From: an uncultured Akkermansia sp.
GTDB lineage: Bacteria > Verrucomicrobiota > Kiritimatiellia > RFP12 > JAAYNR01
Assembly: GCA_964580075.1 (NCBI GenBank)
Contig: CAZOJL010000002.1
Location: 6,034 to 70,033, forward strand
Length of the DNA stretch: 64,000 nt
Direction of reading: 5' to 3'
Part shown: in pieces, positions 41,844-49,916 of the stretch
Numbering within the stretch: the stretch's first letter is position 1
How the letters are laid out: each line of letters opens with the position of its first letter
Translations under genes and position numbers: made by a program
Notes under the pieces: model-generated
The model's database searches: none
What the model was told of the DNA's origin: nothing
Seen by the model: the letters and a program-made list of their open reading frames with translations, nothing else

Positions 41844-43646
41844 ATGAGCCCCTTAACTCCGGCATACCTGGCCATACTTAAGAAACATCTCGCTGACAGG
41901 TACGTTGTTCACCTGCCACCACTCGCAAAGAACAGCAAAAACTCCGATGAAGTGGAGAAGAAAAACCTTTCGCGGGCTTTCAGCGCCTTCACATTGCATC
42001 ACCTTACTGGCGTTTCTGAAAAAGAAGCCGCAGAGTCAGTTGTGGACGATTTTGAAGACGTTGGTTTGGACGCCGTGTATTACTTCGCACCAACAGAGAC
42101 ACTTTTCCTGGTACAGTCCAAACTGAAAGCATCGGAAGAATTCAGCCAAGACGAAGCACTGGCGTTTTGTCAAGGCATACGCAAACTGATCAAAGAGGAC
42201 TTCAACGGGTTCAATGAACACGTGACACGACGCCAGACGGAAATCGAAGGCGCATTGGAACTATGCCGTGAGATCCAACTTGTTGTCGCACACACCGGTT
42301 CCGGCATCAGCAAACATGCTCGAACCGCTTTAGACGAACTCCGCCAGGATGAGACCCACGACGAACTACGGTTCACCCCCCCAATCCTGGATTTTGATGC
42401 AAACAAAGTAGTAAACGGCCTGCAAGGAAGTCATGCCTACAAACGCGTCGACACGAAACTTGTTGTCAGGAACTGCAAACACATTGCCGAACCAAGATCG
42501 ACATACTTCGGTCTAGCCAATATCATAGACTTGGTCGCACTGCACAAGACACATGACAAGGCACTCTACGACAAGAACATCCGGACATTTCTCGGTCACG
42601 AGACAGACGTGAATAAGGCTATCCAGAAGACATTAGCCGAGAAACCTGACCACTTTATCTACCTGAATAACGGCGTCACAGTGCTCTGCCAACAGATCGA
42701 CCCGAAGGACACTAACAAGAAGGAAGGCAGGCGCTTGGTAATCAAGGGGTTTTCCGTGGTGAACGGCGCCCAGACGATTGCGTCGTCCGCAAAGTATGTG
42801 GCCGATAACCCGGGTGCAAATATAGATTTTGCCCGCGTTTTGATCACACTGATTGAAGCTGCCGCTGACGGCGACTTTGGGAAGTCCGTCACCAGAGCCC
42901 GTAATCATCAGAATGAAGTCAAACAGTCCAACTTCGCTGCCCTTGACGACGGTCAGGAGAGACTTCGCAGGGATTTGGCGCAACTTGATATTCAGTACGC
43001 ATACAAGGCAGGAAGAACCGAAGGACCAGATGATCCCAACCGAATTCAGATTGAGGAAGCAGTTCAGGCATTGGCGCTACTTCAGGGCGACCCGCGATAC
43101 GCCGTCCGGTTGAAGAAGCAACCCGCTGACCTATTGAACACGGAGTCCGACCAGTACAAGGAACTTTTCGGTTCATCGCTCACTGCTTTCCAACTACTCA
43201 ATGCGGTTCTTGTAAATCGTTACGTCCAACGCCGGATTGGAGAAGAAGTCGGGAGAACGGGCGGCCAGGAAAGACTCGTTTACAAGCACGGGAACCACGT
43301 GATCGCATGGATACTCGCCAAGTGTGTAATGAAGGCCATTAACGAACCGGCACGCATAGACAACGCTAAACTCAACACTTTACTTAGCGTGCCGTTCGAT
43401 GAAATCAGACAAAAGCAATGGGACAAGGCCCAACCAGCCCTTGCGCAACGCGGACCGTTGTCTTTGTTCCGCAACCAAACCCATACCATCCCATTGATGC
43501 AACACCTCATGATCGACTTCTACGGTCTGACAAACGATCCAGTCATAGGACACAAACTCGCACAACAGCAACCTGGCGACCTCTATCCAACGCACCTCTT
43601 CGCGTACCTGATTCAACGGGCGCCCCAGATCGGGGGACTCTCATGA
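41844..43646 (+). CDS. AIPR-family (abortive infection phage resistance) protein
   Basis: N-terminal AIPR signature (SRAFSAFTLHHL..VDDFEDVGLDAVYYF..LFLVQSKL) and the central motif FIYLNNGVTVLC..GFSVVNGAQT characteristic of PF10592-type proteins. GGAAGG Shine-Dalgarno before the ATG at 41844; ATGA overlap with the downstream mod. Confidence 0.7.
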   Translation: MSPLTPAYLAILKKHLADRYVVHLPPLAKNSKNSDEVEKKNLSRAFSAFTLHHLTGVSEKEAAESVVDDFEDVGLDAVYYFAPTETLFLVQSKLKASEEFSQDEALAFCQGIRKLIKEDFNGFNEHVTRRQTEIEGALELCREIQLVVAHTGSGISKHARTALDELRQDETHDELRFTPPILDFDANKVVNGLQGSHAYKRVDTKLVVRNCKHIAEPRSTYFGLANIIDLVALHKTHDKALYDKNIRTFLGHETDVNKAIQKTLAEKPDHFIYLNNGVTVLCQQIDPKDTNKKEGRRLVIKGFSVVNGAQTIASSAKYVADNPGANIDFARVLITLIEAAADGDFGKSVTRARNHQNEVKQSNFAALDDGQERLRRDLAQLDIQYAYKAGRTEGPDDPNRIQIEEAVQALALLQGDPRYAVRLKKQPADLLNTESDQYKELFGSSLTAFQLLNAVLVNRYVQRRIGEEVGRTGGQERLVYKHGNHVIAWILAKCVMKAINEPARIDNAKLNTLLSVPFDEIRQKQWDKAQPALAQRGPLSLFRNQTHTIPLMQHLMIDFYGLTNDPVIGHKLAQQQPGDLYPTHLFAYLIQRAPQIGGLS

Positions 43647-45397
43647 CCAGACACCTCAAACTCGAACTCACCTGGATCGGCAAGGAGAACCGGCCCCGCC
43701 TGGAGCCGCGCATCCTCCTCGAAGATCCGGAGAAGTCGTATCACGCCGCACATCGGGTGAAGGAATGGCCGCAAGAGAACGCAAAAAACACAAAAGGCTC
43801 AGACTCTTTGCGCTCTCTGTGTTCTTTCGCGGCTAAGAATCCCTCCGATGTCGGCGATCTCTTCGACAACCGCCTCATCTTCGGCGACAACCTCCTCGCC
43901 CTCAAGGCACTTGAGCAAGAGTTCACCGGGAAAATTAGGTGCGTATTCATTGACCCACCCTACAACACGGGTAGCGCATTTACACACTACGACGATGGAG
44001 TTGAGCACTCTCTTTGGCTTTCTCTCATCAGAGATCGACTGGAGATGTTACGTCAACTCCTTGCCGATGACGGTTCTCTTTGGATCACTATTGACGACAA
44101 TGAATCTCATTATCTTAAGGTTTTGTGCGACGAAGTGTTTGGAAGGCAGAACTTCGTTGCCAATGTGGTCTGGCAAAAAAAATCGTCACCGCAACCAAAC
44201 GCGGTTTGGCTTTCCGACAGTCACGACCACATCCTTGTTTACGCGAAAAATAAATCTATATGGCGTCCAAATATGTTGGAGCGCAGTGTTGAAGCGAATT
44301 CGCGTTACAAGAATCCAGACAACGATCCCCGTGGTATGTGGACGTCTGGTGACTGCACAATCAGCTTGACCGGCGGGCAACGCGGAGCGCAGTTCGCTAG
44401 GACCGGTGTTTCGGAGAACATCTATGAAATTCAAACGCCGTCTGGGCGCAAGGTGTCTCCTCCACCTGGAACATGCTGGCGTTTTAGTAAGAAGCGATAT
44501 GAAGAACTGGTAAAAGAATACCGGATTTATTTTGGTGACACCGGCAATAACGTTCCAAGATACAAGAGATTCCTTTCAGAAGTTCAGGAAGGTATTGTCT
44601 GCATGACAGTGTGGCTTCGAACAGAAGTGAGCGATAATCAGGACGCGAAGCGAGAAGTAATGGTATTCAATTCCGAGCAGGTGTTTTCTACACCGAAACC
44701 CGAAAGGCTTTTACAACGCATCGTTGAGTTAGCGTCGAATCCCGGTGACTGGGTGCTCGACTCCTTCGCCGGTTCCGGCACTACGGGTGCGGTCGCTCAC
44801 AAGATGGGCCGGCGCTGGATCATGGTGGAACTGGGCGAGCATTGCCACACACACATCATTCCCCGACTCAAAAAAGTTATTGACGGTGAAGATTCTGGCG
44901 GCATCACGAAGTCCGTGGATTGGAAAGGCGGCGGTGGGTTCCGCTACTACCGGCTCGCGCCGTCGCTGCTGGAAAAGGACAAGTGGGGGCAGTGGGTCAT
45001 CAGCAAGGAGTTTAATGCCGCCATGTTGGCCGAGGCGGCCTGTAAACTGGAAGGGTTCACCTACGCCCCGAGCGACTCTGTCTATTGGCAACACGGGCAC
45101 TCCACCGAACGTGATTTCATCTATGTGACCACCCAGAATCTGAACGCCGCCCAACTTGCGCAGTTGAGCGATGAAGTCGGCCCGGATCGCACCTTGCTCG
45201 TGCTTTGCGCCGCCTTTCGCGCACCACGTGGCGACGCCGCCGAACGCTACCCGAACCTCACGGTGAAGAAGATTCCCAAACAGGTGCTTTCCCGTTGCGA
45301 ATGGGGGCATGATGATTACAGTCTAAACGTGGAGAACTTGCCCAAGGCACCGCCGAAGTTGGGGCAACAGGATCTGTTTGCGGAGGTTGGCAAATGA
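43643..45397 (+). CDS. Type III restriction-modification DNA methyltransferase (Mod subunit, N6-adenine/N4-cytosine class)
   Basis: LKLELTWIGKENRP N-terminus typical of Type III Mod, catalytic DPPYN motif, and a SAM-binding LDSFAGSGTTGAVA motif separated by a large target-recognition region. Confidence 0.85.
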   Translation: MTRHLKLELTWIGKENRPRLEPRILLEDPEKSYHAAHRVKEWPQENAKNTKGSDSLRSLCSFAAKNPSDVGDLFDNRLIFGDNLLALKALEQEFTGKIRCVFIDPPYNTGSAFTHYDDGVEHSLWLSLIRDRLEMLRQLLADDGSLWITIDDNESHYLKVLCDEVFGRQNFVANVVWQKKSSPQPNAVWLSDSHDHILVYAKNKSIWRPNMLERSVEANSRYKNPDNDPRGMWTSGDCTISLTGGQRGAQFARTGVSENIYEIQTPSGRKVSPPPGTCWRFSKKRYEELVKEYRIYFGDTGNNVPRYKRFLSEVQEGIVCMTVWLRTEVSDNQDAKREVMVFNSEQVFSTPKPERLLQRIVELASNPGDWVLDSFAGSGTTGAVAHKMGRRWIMVELGEHCHTHIIPRLKKVIDGEDSGGITKSVDWKGGGGFRYYRLAPSLLEKDKWGQWVISKEFNAAMLAEAACKLEGFTYAPSDSVYWQHGHSTERDFIYVTTQNLNAAQLAQLSDEVGPDRTLLVLCAAFRAPRGDAAERYPNLTVKKIPKQVLSRCEWGHDDYSLNVENLPKAPPKLGQQDLFAEVGK

Positions 45398-46617
45398 AGA
45401 AGAACCCCGCGCTTTATGAACGTGTCCGGCAGATTCTAGAATCTGCCCGGTCAACCGTGGCCCGGTCGGTGAACACGACCCAGGTGGTAGCGAATTGGCT
45501 GATCGGCCAGGAGATTGTGGAGGAAGAGCAAAAGGGAAAGCGCCGGGCTGACTACGGGAACGAGTTGATCATCGACCTGGCAAAACGATTGACGGCGGAT
45601 TTTGGAAACGGGTACTCCAAGGACAATCTCTTCTGGTTCCGCCGATTGTATCAAGGTTATCCGGAACTGCTGGCCCGGCAGAAATTTGACGCACTGCGTC
45701 AAATTTCCGACGCAGTGCCTCGGAAATCTACAGGCACAGGGACTTTTGCAGCATTTCCGTCAAAAACGCGCACCGTGCATAGTTGTTCTGTTGCGGAGAT
45801 TGGCTACGCAGTGCGTAGCCAATCCTGGAAACCCGGCCAACTCCATCCAACCCTCTCCTGGACCCACTACCGGACACTACTGCGCGTGGATAAACCCGAG
45901 ACCCGCGCCTTTTATGAAATCGAGGCAATCAAGAACAATTGGGGGGCGCGGGAACTGGAGCGGCAAATTTGCAGCCTGTTCTATGAACGACTGGCGTTGA
46001 GTCGGGACAAAAAGGGATTGATGCGTCTGGCGACAAAAGGGCAGGTTGTTCAGAAGCCAACGGATGTGTTCAAGGACCCAGTGGTCATGGAATTTCTGGG
46101 GCTTCCGGAATCGCCGAGACTGACCGAAACCGATCTGGAGACCGCCTTGATCAACAATCTCCAGTCATTTCTGCTGGAACTGGGCAAGGGGTTCGCCTTT
46201 GTGGCGCGACAGGGCCGACTGACACTGGACGGCGATCATTTTTACGTGGATCTTGTTTTCTATCATACGATCCTGAAGTGCTACGTGATCATTGATCTCA
46301 AGACCGGCAAACTCACACATCAGGACCTTGGGCAACTTCAACTGTACGTCAACTACTACGACCGGGAGAAACGCGCCACGGGCGATAATCCAACATTGGG
46401 GCTGATTCTCTGCGCCGAGAAGAACGACACCGTGGTGCGGTACACCTTGGGCAAAGACCAGAAAAAGCAGATATTCGCCAGCCGTTATCAGATGTACCTG
46501 CCGACCGAGGCCCAACTGCGGGCCGAGATACGCCGGGAAGTCCGATTGTTGCAAGCGCCAGAGATTGCAACGAAAAAACGCATGGAGCGTAAAGGACGAA
46601 TTGCTGCCCTAAGTTGA
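45394..46617 (+). CDS. DUF1016/YhcG-family protein with a C-terminal PD-(D/E)XK nuclease fold
   Basis: YhcG N-domain (LSWTHYRTLL..RAFYEIEAIKNNWGARELERQI) and C-terminal PD-(D/E)XK signature (DGDHFYVDLVFYH..YVIIDLKTGK). ATGA overlap with the mod stop. Confidence 0.7.
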   Translation: MKKNPALYERVRQILESARSTVARSVNTTQVVANWLIGQEIVEEEQKGKRRADYGNELIIDLAKRLTADFGNGYSKDNLFWFRRLYQGYPELLARQKFDALRQISDAVPRKSTGTGTFAAFPSKTRTVHSCSVAEIGYAVRSQSWKPGQLHPTLSWTHYRTLLRVDKPETRAFYEIEAIKNNWGARELERQICSLFYERLALSRDKKGLMRLATKGQVVQKPTDVFKDPVVMEFLGLPESPRLTETDLETALINNLQSFLLELGKGFAFVARQGRLTLDGDHFYVDLVFYHTILKCYVIIDLKTGKLTHQDLGQLQLYVNYYDREKRATGDNPTLGLILCAEKNDTVVRYTLGKDQKKQIFASRYQMYLPTEAQLRAEIRREVRLLQAPEIATKKRMERKGRIAALS

Positions 46618-46710
46618 ATACAGTTCATCTGGACAATTTACCATGTCCACGTCAAAACCGGAGCAGATCGAATGGCTATGAATGACATAACCGCACCCGA
46701 AGACCAACAA

Positions 46711-46787
46711 CCACTTCGCGCCTTCGCGTCTTCGCGTGAAATCCCAACGCAGACAGTCTCACGCGAAGGCGCGAAGGCGCGAAGTGG
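46711..46787. repeat. 29-bp near-perfect inverted repeat (CCACTTCGCGCCTTCGCGTCTTCGCGTGA / TCACGCGAAGGCGCGAAGGCGCGAAGTGG) with a 19-nt loop, immediately 5' of the GxxExxY start. A direct copy of the left arm lies 3' of the gene at 47172-47196.
   Basis: Seen directly; the arms are reverse complements with 1-2 mismatches. Confidence 0.7.
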
Positions 46788-46791
46788 GGAG

Positions 46792-47223
46792 ATGAACATC
46801 GAAGAGGTTTCGGCGATCATCGTGGATTGTGGTTACAAATTGCATGTTGAGGTAGGACCTGGCCTTTTGGAAAGCGTGTATGAAGTGGTCCTGGCCAAGA
46901 TGCTGGAACAACGCGGTTTGCGCGTGCGACGACAGGTTCCCGTGCCGATTGAATTAATGGGGTTGACGTTTGACGAAGGGTTTCGCGCGGATTTGATTGT
47001 CCATGATCGGGTGCTGGTGGAGTTGAAGTCGGTAGAAAACCTGGCCCCTGTTCACGGCAAGCAAGTCCTCACTTATCTCCGCCTTTTAAAGATGCCGCTA
47101 GGCTTGTTGATTAATTTTAGCGCCGCAACCTTCAAGGATGGCGTAAAGCGCATCGTCAACCAACATCATGATTTCGCGTCTTCGCGTCTTCGCGTGAACC
47201 AAGCCCTTTCGGAGAATCCATGA
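46792..47223 (+). CDS. GxxExxY-family protein (small PD-(D/E)XK-like nuclease-fold protein)
   Basis: GPGLLESVYE motif, plus DLIVHDRVLVELKSV and LLINF motifs that match the GxxExxY family consensus. GGGGAG Shine-Dalgarno upstream. The ORF continues past the family core to an ATGA overlap with res; the upstream ORF portion (46672-) is the translated hairpin. Confidence 0.65.
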   Translation: MNIEEVSAIIVDCGYKLHVEVGPGLLESVYEVVLAKMLEQRGLRVRRQVPVPIELMGLTFDEGFRADLIVHDRVLVELKSVENLAPVHGKQVLTYLRLLKMPLGLLINFSAATFKDGVKRIVNQHHDFASSRLRVNQALSENP

Positions 47224-49916
47224 AGCCCCAAGTCAACGCCATTGCCGGACGACTGAGTCTGCGCCAGCCCCAACGCCGCGCGTTGGAAATCCTCGACCGC
47301 GTTACGGAGATCGTCCCGCCCAAGAAGGGCGCTGACATCGCAGCCGCCTTGGCGGTCATCCGGTCCGAGTTTCCAACCGTCACCGATTTTGAGCGCGACT
47401 TTCCCTCCCTCTGTTTTGCCCTTGCCACTGGCGTTGGCAAGACGCGCCTCATGGGCGCTTTCATCACCTATCTCTATCAGGCATACGGCATCAACAACTT
47501 TTTCGTCATGGCTCCGAATCTGACGATCTACAACAAGTTGATCACGGACTTCACGCCCAACACCTCCAAGTATGTTTTCAAGGGAATCGCCGAGTTTGCC
47601 ACGGAGCCGCCGGAAATCATCACCGGCGACAACTACGAGGCCAAGGCAGGCACCTTGTTTGACGAGTTGATCCGCTGCCGGGTGAACATCTTCAATATCT
47701 CGAAGATCAACTCCGAAGTCCGAGGCGGCAAGTCGCCGCGCATCAAACGCCTCTCCGAGTACATCGGCGAGAGCTATTTCGAGTACTTGGCCAATCTGCC
47801 CGACCTTGTTCTCGTCATGGATGAATCGCACCGCTACCGGGCCAGCGCGGGCGTGCGGGCAATCAACGAACTCAAGCCCGTCCTGGGGCTGGAACTCACG
47901 GCCACGCCGTTTGTCGAGACCGGGAAGGGGCCTGTAGCGTTCAAGAACGTTATTCAGGATTACCCCCTTGGCAAGGCCATGGCCGATGGCTTTGTAAAGG
48001 AACCGGCCGTTGTCACGCGCAAGAATTTCAACCCGGCCGGCATGACGCCCGAAGCCGTGGAGCGCATGAAACTGGAGGACGGCGTCCGCCTGCACGAGAG
48101 CATCAAGGTGGAACTGGAGACGTACGCGCGCGAAACGGAAAACCGCCTCGTAAAACCGTTTGTCCTGGTCATCGCCCGCGATACCACGCACGCCAAGCAA
48201 CTCGTTGACCTGCTCCAATCCGAAACCTTCTTCGATGGCCGCTACAAGGAGAAGGTCATCCAGGTCGATTCCAGCAAGACCGGCGCCGAAGAAGACGAGA
48301 TGGTTGAGCGCTTGCTCAAGGTCGAGCACACGGACGAACCAACCGAAATTGTGATTCACGTCAACATGCTCAAGGAGGGGTGGGACGTCACCAACCTCTA
48401 CACCATCGTCCCTCTTCGTGCCGCCAATGCCCGCACCCTCATCGAGCAGTCCATCGGCCGCGGCCTGCGCCTGCCATACGGCAAGCGCACAGGCGTCACC
48501 AGCGTGGATCGCCTGAACATCGTAGCCCATGACAAGTTTCAGGAGATCGTGGACGAAGCCAAGAAACCCGGCTCTGCCATCCATCTCCAGCAGGTCATCC
48601 TGGCCGACGACACACTTAGCCAGAAGACCGTCACCATGGTCTCCCAGTCCCAACTCGCCAATCGCCTGGGCCTGACTGTGGATCAACCGACACCCAGCAC
48701 GCTACAACCCGAGGCAGCGGCCAAGCCGATATTTACACAGCCGGAAGAACAGAAGATCGCGCAACTCACCTACGAGGCCATCAAGAGGCTCGAAAGTCAG
48801 CCCACGGCCGTGCCGGGCGTCTCATTCCTGTCGAACCCGGACGTGCAGGCAGCCATTCAAAAGGAAGTGGCAAGCCGGTATCAACCCCCGGTTCAGATGG
48901 AGATGGATGTCGTCACCGCGAAGCCAGACATTGCGGCCATTGTTGCCGCCACGGCAGAACTGGTCATCCAGCAGACTATCGATATTCCCCGAATTCTCGT
49001 GGTGCCCGCCGGCAAGGTCCAATCCGGCTTCAAGCCATTTGTCCTGAAACTGGATACGCTCAATTACCCGCCGGTCTCCGAAGAACTTTGGGCCAAACAC
49101 CTGCGCACCGATCAGGTTGATGTCATCGCCATGGGCAAGGGCGGTACTGAGGAAGAGCGCCTGGAAGACTACGTTGTTTCCGGCTTGGTTGATTTCGACG
49201 ACATCTCATACGACGCGCACGCAGATCTTCTGTACGATCTGGCAGGTCAGGTTGTGCGCCATCTCCGGTCCTACCTCAAGGAAGAAGCGGAGACTCGAAA
49301 GGTTCTCCGGTGTTATCAGCGGGACATCGCCCGGTTTGTCCATGCCCAGATGCAGGAGCACTACTGGGAAGCGGCTACCTCTCTCGACGTGACGATCACC
49401 AAGGGGTTCACCGAACTCAAACGAAGCGCCTACACCACCGATGCCCGAGATCCGGTCAAGGATTATCGGTATTCACTGGCGGACAAGAGCAACATGCCCA
49501 AGCACCTCTTCGGCGGTTTCACAAAATGCCTCTATCCGGTCCAGAAGTTTCAGTCCGACCCGGAGCGCAAGATGGCTGTGATCCTCGAACGCGAATCCGA
49601 CAAATGGTTCCGGCCGGCCAAGGGCCAATTCCAGATCTACTACAAGTCCGGCGCCGAGCAACCCGAATATCAGCCAGACTTCGTGGCCGAGACGGCCGAC
49701 GTCATCTACATGCTCGAACCCAAACGCCGCGACGAGTTGCAGGATGCCGACGTGCAGGCCAAGAAAGCCGTTGCTGAAATCTGGTGCCAGCACGCCACCG
49801 CACACGCCAAGACCTACAACGGCAAGCCCTGGCAATACCTCCTCATCCCCCACGACGCCATCGCCGACAACATGACGCTCGAAGGGCTCGCCGCCCTGTT
49901 CAAGGACAACGAATGA
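47220..49916 (+). CDS. Type III restriction enzyme Res subunit (SF2 helicase-nuclease)
   Basis: Helicase motif I ALATGVGKTR, motif II LVLVMDESHRY, a helicase C region, and a C-terminal endonuclease region. ~900 aa, positioned with mod. Confidence 0.85.
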   Translation: MKPQVNAIAGRLSLRQPQRRALEILDRVTEIVPPKKGADIAAALAVIRSEFPTVTDFERDFPSLCFALATGVGKTRLMGAFITYLYQAYGINNFFVMAPNLTIYNKLITDFTPNTSKYVFKGIAEFATEPPEIITGDNYEAKAGTLFDELIRCRVNIFNISKINSEVRGGKSPRIKRLSEYIGESYFEYLANLPDLVLVMDESHRYRASAGVRAINELKPVLGLELTATPFVETGKGPVAFKNVIQDYPLGKAMADGFVKEPAVVTRKNFNPAGMTPEAVERMKLEDGVRLHESIKVELETYARETENRLVKPFVLVIARDTTHAKQLVDLLQSETFFDGRYKEKVIQVDSSKTGAEEDEMVERLLKVEHTDEPTEIVIHVNMLKEGWDVTNLYTIVPLRAANARTLIEQSIGRGLRLPYGKRTGVTSVDRLNIVAHDKFQEIVDEAKKPGSAIHLQQVILADDTLSQKTVTMVSQSQLANRLGLTVDQPTPSTLQPEAAAKPIFTQPEEQKIAQLTYEAIKRLESQPTAVPGVSFLSNPDVQAAIQKEVASRYQPPVQMEMDVVTAKPDIAAIVAATAELVIQQTIDIPRILVVPAGKVQSGFKPFVLKLDTLNYPPVSEELWAKHLRTDQVDVIAMGKGGTEEERLEDYVVSGLVDFDDISYDAHADLLYDLAGQVVRHLRSYLKEEAETRKVLRCYQRDIARFVHAQMQEHYWEAATSLDVTITKGFTELKRSAYTTDARDPVKDYRYSLADKSNMPKHLFGGFTKCLYPVQKFQSDPERKMAVILERESDKWFRPAKGQFQIYYKSGAEQPEYQPDFVAETADVIYMLEPKRRDELQDADVQAKKAVAEIWCQHATAHAKTYNGKPWQYLLIPHDAIADNMTLEGLAALFKDNE

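Follow-up and report, generated by a model that had tools for sequence, protein, structure and literature searches.

The 64-kb stretch of contig CAZOJL010000002.1 analysed here (the window) contains a gene of the GxxExxY nuclease family that is enclosed by inverted arms built of repeated heptamers; gene and arms together constitute the cassette with which this report is concerned. The gene, the only member of its family found in the 64 kb, lies in an open reading frame (ORF) at 46672-47223 of the plus strand, to which all window coordinates refer, and the ORF scores 124.6 bits against PF13366 (cut-off 22) and 127.2 bits against TIGR04256 (cut-off 35). Its GxxExxY/PDDEXK_3 core occupies 123 codons (46792..47160). 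The likely nuclease start is the ATG at 46792, which follows a Shine-Dalgarno-like GGGGAG at 46786-46791 (46786..46794 for the two together); profile matches start 4-5 codons past this ATG. Across this branch of the family an arm is ~27 nt long and consists of TCAC followed by two to three CGCGAAG heptamers with one free base between them (R-type), or of the reverse complement, (n-CTTCGCG)2-3-TGA (L-type). In the window the 5' arm of the cassette is the R-type sequence TCA-CGCGAAG-G-CGCGAAG-G-CGCGAAG-TGG (46759..46787), and the 3' arm is the L-type sequence ATTTCGCG-T-CTTCGCG-T-CTTCGCG-TGA (47171..47197), which is translated as DFASSRLRV.

An extra L-type arm, CCA-CTTCGCG-C-CTTCGCG-T-CTTCGCG-TGA (46711..46739), precedes the cassette and forms, across a 19-nt loop (46740..46758), the left half of a local hairpin of which the R arm is the right half, as judged by repeat searches and folding. 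The two hairpin arms are 29 nt each and 97% complementary, the lone non-Watson-Crick position being a G.U pair in plus-strand RNA. As RNA the hairpin has a folding energy of -60.7 kcal/mol (z = -10.1), and the end of its stem shares 2 nt with the Shine-Dalgarno-like sequence. The 3' arm, matched at 47173-47198, is 96% identical to the left hairpin arm and, over 25 nt, is 92% complementary to the right one in inverted orientation, the pair lying 389 nt apart with the gene between them. The motif CTTCGCGTCTTCGCGT, with up to two mismatches allowed, has six matches in the window, all six at the GxxExxY locus, against 0.10 expected in the shuffled window; none of 100 shuffles reached six. An earlier note on this DNA had described the hairpin, the 3' copy and an ATGA overlap with the downstream res gene, and the coordinates and sequences it gave are borne out by repeat search and sequence reading. 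It was also right that repeats flank the gene, but it took them for a direct repeat, whereas the arrangement found family-wide is an inverted repeat with the R arm upstream and the L arm downstream.

The encoded protein is predicted to be a small PD-(D/E)XK nuclease. Its AlphaFold model (pLDDT, the predicted local distance difference test score, 86.5) displays the alpha-alpha-beta-beta-beta-alpha-beta topology of that fold, and Asp67, Glu77 and Lys79, numbered from the Met at 46792, are invariant in 44 sequences. The arm-encoded tail (model residues 126-143) is disordered in the model. The best Foldseek matches in the PDB are Cas4 SSO0001, lambda exonuclease and tRNA-splicing endonucleases, all weak (TM ~0.5); as these are only generic PD-(D/E)XK relatives they give no clue to the substrate, and a sequence search of the PDB with the protein returned no match. 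A survey covering PF13366 lists its function as 'Unknown' and records multiple transfers (PMC3424549). The family is very large, a word-index search returning at least 8,000 candidates. The PD-(D/E)XK core is the sole gene within the cassette, and profile searches detected no DDE, HUH, serine or tyrosine transposase there.

The earlier note had suggested looking for the flanking CTTCGCGT repeats at other GxxExxY loci, and they are present. The arm survey drew on the DNA of 80 relatives from named genomes (81 loci; individual loci and contigs retrieved for comparison are designated by labels such as L017 or L081), and canonical R and L pairs could be extracted in at least 54 of the 81. Between the R arm and the core there are 1-45 nt, and between the core and the L arm 11-12 nt; the arms so define an enclosed unit, R arm-gene-L arm, of about 440-480 bp. 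Arrays of at least two heptamers concentrate at the gene, while shuffled loci yielded seven arrays in 612 kb. The relatives sampled belong to Verrucomicrobiota, Kiritimatiellia, Planctomycetota, Gamma-, Delta- and Alphaproteobacteria, Acidobacteriota, Nitrospinota, Spirochaetota and Hydrogenedentota; the cassette with its arms occurs in at least eight bacterial phyla, and the gene with both arms has spread across them. The cassette is co-oriented within host operons, often with 4-nt start/stop overlaps, which were found in 21 of the 81 loci on each side and on both sides in 10. An 85%-identical gene, for example, belongs to an unrelated signalling operon, where its neighbours are a SpoIIE-type response regulator gene and a STAS/HATPase gene, each of which it overlaps by 4 nt. 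Neighbours are very diverse. Restriction-modification genes are over-represented among them (Mod upstream in 9/75 and HsdM upstream in 4; ResIII downstream in 7/76, HsdS and RhuM downstream in 4 each), and housekeeping genes such as gyrB, SHMT and EF-Tu are common too.

The arms are conserved as nucleic acid, and the two arms of a cassette co-vary. Across the 54 arm pairs, heptamer positions are paired in ~70-100% of loci, rising to 89-100% in the two outer units, and the arms change jointly, giving the variant pairs CACGAAG/CTTCGTG, CGCGGAG/CTCCGCG, CGCAAAG/CTTTGCG, CGCAGAG/CTCTGCG and CGCTAAG/CTTAGCG. In the 33 arm pairs that align without gaps, 93.7% of cells pair, and both sides have changed in 11 of the pairs. 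Cells with such double changes number 59, against 22.3 in shuffles, none of 500 shuffles reaching 59, and sliding the partner arm by 1-3 columns reduces pairing to 31-57%. The arm variant tracks the clade of the protein, not the host: the CGCGGAG clade includes loci labelled Rhizomicrobium, Thermoanaerobaculia, Treponema, Verrucomicrobia and Hydrogenedentota, and it spans Alphaproteobacteria, Acidobacteriota, Spirochaetota, Verrucomicrobiota and Hydrogenedentota. Both arms are non-coding in sphingomonads, where the 5' arm occupies the leader and runs into the ATG and the 3' arm follows the stop codon.

Enclosure by periodic inverted repeats is a property of the GxxExxY family rather than of one clade. 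An unbiased tblastn search of a plasmid collection retrieved seven more distant GxxExxY genes (33-55% identity), five of which are enclosed by inverted repeats, four of these clearly composed of heptamer units. The Sphingomonas plasmid gene has arms TTCACGCGAAGG.. that are 92% complementary; the gene from Gemmatirosa is flanked by CGCAGAGG units (32 nt at 100%) with hairpins on both sides; that of Bacteroides finegoldii has TTCAC-CACAGAG.. arms (30 nt at 90%), and that of Bernardetia CACAGAGA units (28 nt at 86%). The repeat around the Treponema gene is short (16 nt at 88%) and the weakest of the five. The two genes left uncounted are from Prevotella, with periodic hairpins downstream, and from an AT-rich Fusobacteria locus where nothing convincing was seen. 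Viral contigs yielded a single relative, L205, in which a 44%-identical gene lies between hairpin pairs of ATCAGCG-type units with a period of 9-10 nt (1300-2028 of an AT-rich contig); read-through past its stop would yield the peptide INQRKSARSAGN. This locus suggests that there are lineage-specific families of arms. A further distant gene, L198, has 60-nt terminal repeats, although, as it was retrieved via the arm-pattern scan, it is not an independent sample.

The arms also mark where homology between otherwise unrelated loci stops. In an all-against-all blastn comparison of the loci, homology ends 36-46 nt past the core in 653 of 1,820 pairs and begins 20-40 nt before the core in 196 pairs. 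A filled and an empty version of one site are available in the sphingomonads. In Sphingomonas paeninsulae fabD and fabG are separated by a 32-nt spacer, while in S. parapaucimobilis and Sphingomonas sp. NFR04 the site is occupied by DNA extending from TTCACGCGAAG to CTTCGCGTGAA(CCAA), which starts 5-6 nt past the fabD stop codon and ends ~20 nt before the fabG ATG. Here the arms mark the ends of the insertion. The arm-bounded ends of homology and this filled/empty pair uphold the earlier note's view of the gene as a discrete inserted unit. A model in which the cassette inserts into ATGA stop/start overlaps with duplication of the ATGA was considered and dropped, as the distance between ATGA and arm varies and overlaps on both sides occur at only the 10 loci given above.

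Heptamer arms are found in addition without the gene. Between hsdM and hsdS of L017 (4420-4975) there are five tandem units of ~100 nt, each consisting of an R arm, a Shine-Dalgarno sequence, an ATG, a few codons, a ..KHPNFAPSRLRASQ tail (the short ORF ending ..PNFAPSRLRASQ) and an L arm, with the unit ORFs chained by ATGA overlaps; these units are internally deleted cassettes. A scan for (CGCGAAGn)3 in at least 120 metagenome contigs recovered at least 159 arms, of which 14 have a GxxExxY gene no more than 300 nt away, 56 lie too close to a contig end to be judged and 89 are orphans; of the 103 decidable arms recovered, 89 are therefore gene-less. R...L hairpins make up most of the orphans; their loops measure 9-200 nt and their interiors are unrelated, apart from a few that are shared across contigs (L132/L189, 86%; L086/L123, 72%). 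The hairpin at 1365-1430 of L126 combines R units of CGCGAAG with L units of CTCCGCG, which gives A.C mismatches on one strand where the other has G.U; going by its sequence, it would pair well only as RNA or single-stranded DNA of the opposite strand.

Arms are likewise seen inside protein-coding genes. In L025 (1290-1720) two R arms and one L arm stand in frame in the gene for a 1,133-aa methylase-like protein, where they coincide with indels relative to the L011 homologue, and in L026 (3519-3542) one arm stands in frame in a DUF4391-like gene, the family having been assigned by eye. The window itself holds a second copy of the repeat, a decayed palindromic element in mod (43748..43854) that forms an in-frame insertion of ~87 nt not present in the Mod of L083 and L084; the insertion is translated as ..KEWPQENAKNTKGSDSLRSLCSFAAKNPSDVG.., and the arms lie at ~43774-43801 and ~43807-43835.

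The window cassette is situated at the junction between mod and res of a type III restriction system. The gene order around it is AIPR, type III Mod, DUF1016/YhcG, GxxExxY, Res, LpxK and MurJ. By profile search the upstream neighbour is a DUF1016/YhcG PD-(D/E)XK gene (45394..46617), and the downstream one encodes Res, the type III restriction subunit (ResIII, 898 aa; 47220..49916). The tail of the cassette ORF (47198..47223) runs to a TGA that overlaps the res ATG (ATGA at 47220-47223) and contains a Shine-Dalgarno-like GGAG for res. The leader of the ORF, MAMNDITAPEDQQP (46672..46710), is assigned more tentatively. At 46678 it has ATGAATGAC, a match to the usual cassette start 'MND', which may be compared with ATGAATGAC-TCACACGAAG upstream in L007 and L015, and at ~46693-46713 it appears to hold a decayed R-type arm, CACCCGAAGAC being complementary to GTCTTCGCGTG. 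Going by this leader, the extra L arm may tentatively be regarded as the end of a degenerate gene-less mini-unit that precedes the full cassette. Further upstream, the longest Mod ORF overlaps AIPR by 229 nt (43418-43646), and there is an in-frame ATGA at 43643; Mod probably starts there, because this ATGA matches the 4-nt AIPR/Mod overlap of L083. Mod and DUF1016 overlap by ATGA at 45394-45397, giving a chain of translationally coupled genes.

Comparison with relatives that lack the gene, which the earlier note had called for, shows that the gene is variably present. Contigs from several samples encode a Res 98% identical to that of the window in the order Mod-DUF1016-Res, with no GxxExxY gene. 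Against the closest relatives, L081 and L082, the window is 95% identical up to 46561 and 94.5% identical from 47220; in between, a 658-bp segment (46562..47219; blastn and junction reading) replaces 43 nt. The filled allele is also found in L206 and L207, and as filled alleles coexist with this nearly identical gene-less res operon, presence of the cassette is polymorphic among close relatives. Besides arms and gene, the 658-bp segment carries a 54-nt spacer and an alternative C-terminus for DUF1016, which thereby differs between the alleles. The 43-nt 'empty' segment (L081, 2236-2278; also in L082) contains the 13-mer TCCGAGGTGTCAC, found elsewhere only in a linker before an R arm in L017 (0.04 occurrences expected in 1.28 Mb); in L081 it may be a footprint of excision or deletion. 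Relative to L083 and L084, where Mod and Res are joined directly by ATGA, DUF1016/YhcG is itself an insertion between mod and res, L081 having the order Mod-ATGA-DUF1016-ATGA-Res. DUF1016 and then the cassette were thus added in turn with the 4-nt overlaps kept. In L022 and L030 the cassette separates Mod from Res and is flanked on either side by hairpins. In L034 (3545-3950) the DUF1016 gene that follows Mod is truncated at about residue 110 by an R-19nt-L hairpin, after which comes a GxxExxY cassette; here the hot spot underwent a deletion or insertion in another phylum. The mod-res junction is a hot spot, repeatedly rebuilt and most likely by recombination.

We propose that the GxxExxY cassette is a selfish, horizontally moving mini-element, and assign this picture as a whole a probability of roughly 60%, the mechanism being the more conjectural part of it. 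The two arms would base-pair, whether in DNA, giving a cruciform or hairpin, or in read-through mRNA, where the resulting long stem would hide the start site, and the encoded nuclease would act on the structures so made. The nuclease could in addition mobilise the gene-less hairpins as non-autonomous relatives, as RAYT transposases are thought to serve REPINs, although that the enzyme mobilises arms at all is a possibility we hold only tentatively. The window has one such cassette (R arm at 46759-46787, gene, L arm at 47171-47197) together with an extra L arm that probably derives from an adjacent gene-less mini-unit, and here the cassette was gained or lost within the 658-bp segment at the mod-res junction.

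Several observations weigh against this proposal. The one-base spacers between heptamers are paired in only ~55% of the 54 arm pairs. The mismatches in arm pairs comprise 48 G.U and 38 A.C, and because these counts are about equal, pairing as RNA is not separable from pairing as DNA. All heptamers of both arms change in concert, which makes gene conversion an alternative to selection as the source of the covariation, and the arm-encoded C-terminal tail seems to have gained a role at the protein level. That the cassettes are strictly co-oriented with host genes is no less compatible with a role in RNA than with one in DNA. On the side of mobility, no target-site duplication was found at fabD-fabG or around the orphan hairpins, where divergence of the spacers could hide one of 2-4 bp; no near-identical pair of copies was found within one genome; no orphan hairpin was demonstrated to share a genome with a matching nuclease; and we know of no case in which a PD-(D/E)XK nuclease of 125 aa performs strand transfer alone. 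Finally, the arms do not delimit the 658-bp indel of the window, which starts 150 nt before the extra L arm and stops precisely at the res ATG. The earlier note's view that the gene was gained or lost here stands, but not that the repeats bounded the event, which resembles hot-spot recombination more than transposition.

The strongest of the alternatives is that the arms are purely an RNA-level device with no part in mobility. The arms would pair in the read-through transcript, burying the ribosome-binding site and start codon of the nuclease; in the window, the extra L arm would pair locally with the R arm instead, and the stem could be an RNase III site at which the cassette is cut from the mRNA. 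Such a device would limit expression of the nuclease and shield the host operon; the earlier note's suggestion of an RNA processing or attenuation site at the hairpin falls under this reading. The GxxExxY gene appears to live off host transcription, since it is co-oriented with its neighbours (on both sides in all six annotated distant loci), frequently overlaps them by 4 nt and has no promoter-like site at the window locus in a promoter scan. RNA folds of whole cassettes close with the arm stem (z = -6.3 and -5.1), which is present in both the minimum-energy and centroid folds and in L208 includes the AUG. In the window the long-range stem gives way to a stronger local hairpin, formed with the extra L arm and abutting the Shine-Dalgarno-like sequence, and at the vertically inherited sphingomonad locus compensatory change has kept the arms complementary. 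A terminator scan detected no intrinsic terminator at the window hairpin, the stem being followed by GGGGAGATG without a T run, and an Rfam search of the locus (E<=1) gave only sub-threshold matches to plant miRNA precursors (36 bits against a gathering score of 96). A device of this kind leaves unexplained the gene-less hairpins with unrelated interiors, to which the majority of arms belong, and the solo arms inside other genes. Nor does it account for the concerted change of all heptamers, as a stem needs pairwise compensation only, or for the lack of an excess of G.U over A.C. We regard it as a doubtful full account, but it may well operate alongside the mobile cassette proposed above.

Considerably less probable is that the arms are an independent family of palindromes, resembling REP (repetitive extragenic palindromic) sequences or MITEs (miniature inverted-repeat transposable elements), that is spread by another enzyme and has GxxExxY merely as neighbour, target or passenger. 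Most metagenome arms are indeed far from any GxxExxY gene, orphan interiors are in a few cases shared across contigs, as noted above, and arms can enclose unrelated genes, namely a PIN-like pair in L184 and ThyX in L177. An independent repeat would not, however, be expected to hold the fixed position relative to the core described above, nor to have variants that follow the clade of the nuclease across phyla; distant GxxExxY clades have heptamer variants of their own, and no other gene family recurs beside the arms.

We consider it very improbable that the repeats are only conserved N- and C-terminal peptides (SREDAKARR ... FASSRLRVNQ) with no meaning as nucleic acid. The earlier note had named coding sequence conserved in the protein as the finding that would undo its reading, and in part this is what is observed. 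Of the 120 closest proteins, which are 74-94% identical and come from Verrucomicrobiota, Pseudomonadota and other sources, nearly all end in xHxDFASSRLRVNQ, the translated 3' arm; SREDAKARR, encoded by the arm in reverse complement, opens many of them, and LRGFAPSRE, from a different reading frame of the arm, opens others. In loci with a decayed 3' arm, SSRLRVNQ is retained through synonymous changes (L017, L005, L008, L031, L035 and L041), L017 having seven in eight codons, and since it survives decay of the repeat in this way the peptide evidently has a value of its own. In a slightly wider set, SSRLR(V/I)N(Q/R) is kept within the first 40 nt past the core despite decay of the DNA repeat in L005, L008, L017, L019, L031, L035 and L041; L031, L035 and L041 have a fresh L arm further downstream, past the stop. 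As the sole explanation, conservation in the protein is nevertheless refuted, because identical DNA is read in three frames and on both strands, stands before the start codon and past the stop codon in sphingomonads, forms hairpins without any gene and shows compensatory changes between co-varying arms; the tail is, moreover, disordered in the model. A local duplication, or a low-complexity repeat that arose by chance in the window alone, for which only the short period of the motif speaks, can be dismissed as the origin of the repeats in view of six matches against 0.1 expected and of dozens of genomes with the same arrangement.

If the GxxExxY gene is a mobile cassette, the consequences extend beyond this locus. 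A co-varying nucleic-acid partner gives the PF13366/TIGR04256 family a concrete candidate substrate, and the cassette nature of the gene suggests why members of the family are found at 'odd' sites, among them restriction-modification operons, fabD-fabG and the neighbourhood of radA. Hairpin-forming heptamer repeats would likewise gain a possible source, as would the terminal peptides they encode, SREDAKARR and FASSRLRVNQ, which affect gene calling and the annotation of start sites. No description of repeats around the GxxExxY family was found in a full-text search of the literature, most subscription journals lying outside it. The element is thus apparently undescribed, and it is unusual in its enzyme class, the architecture of its arms and its very small size. 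Going further, and with clearly more doubt than confidence, one may suggest that GxxExxY and the heptamer arms constitute an unrecognised class of ~450-bp mobile elements across bacteria, which would be the smallest autonomous units known and the PD-(D/E)XK counterpart of REPIN-RAYT, the enzyme recognising the arm hairpin or cruciform and moving both the cassette and the gene-less hairpins; such elements would enter operons, and even reading frames, and leave them unbroken.

The cassette shares features with several known systems. Like an integron cassette it is a small, promoterless, co-oriented gene with an imperfect palindrome at its end; in contrast to integron cassettes it lacks the GTTRRRY/RYYYAAC core, has arms on both sides and no integrase nearby, and occurs at scattered loci. 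The possibility that the arms are attC, dif or terminator sequences was rejected on their sequence. The genes near the window cassette are AIPR, Mod, DUF1016, Res and LpxK. In phage T4, free-standing homing endonuclease genes have hairpins at the start site that limit translation from read-through transcripts, and phage homing endonuclease genes resemble the cassette in being small, selfish nuclease genes co-oriented between host genes; they have, however, neither terminal inverted repeats nor gene-less derivatives. Rickettsia palindromic elements (RPEs) are small palindromes that stand in frame in protein genes and are translated. The in-frame arms in mod of the window, in L025 and L026 and at the termini of the GxxExxY ORF are comparable, but RPEs are unrelated in sequence and host range and have no associated nuclease gene.

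The resemblance to insertion sequences (IS) and MITEs is closer. Terminal inverted repeats of 25-30 bp end the homologous unit and the fabD-fabG insertion, though not the 658-bp indel of the window, and internally deleted, ends-only derivatives exist (L017). In IS elements such as IS10, folding of the end back onto the start site blocks translation from outside transcripts, much like the fold-back proposed here. The cassette differs in having no recognised transposase and no target-site duplication seen, in being strictly co-oriented with host genes and in its size, a unit of ~450 bp being, to our knowledge, far smaller than any known autonomous IS.

The closest parallel is with REPIN-RAYT systems. 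RAYT genes are short and typically flanked by REPINs (PMC3337134). Here too a short nuclease-type gene (about 400-500 bp) is flanked by inverted palindromic repeats, the repeats are also dispersed as gene-less inverted doublets that form hairpins, and the variant of the repeat tracks the clade of the enzyme. The differences are equally clear. The enzyme is a PD-(D/E)XK protein, whereas RAYT is an HUH/Y1 (IS200-like) transposase. The arms are tandem heptamers ending in (T)TCAC/GTGA(A) and lack a GTAG or CGTC tag, which is described as the 5' tag of REP palindromes (PMC3733652). The cassette crosses phyla, in contrast to REPIN-RAYT systems, for which mostly vertical inheritance is described, and as to doublets within one genome, the 64-kb window contains one further, decayed copy, orphans being common in metagenome contigs. 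If it is true that the nuclease mobilises the hairpins, the GxxExxY cassette would represent a second, independent invention of the REPIN type and would set a new lower size limit for autonomous elements.

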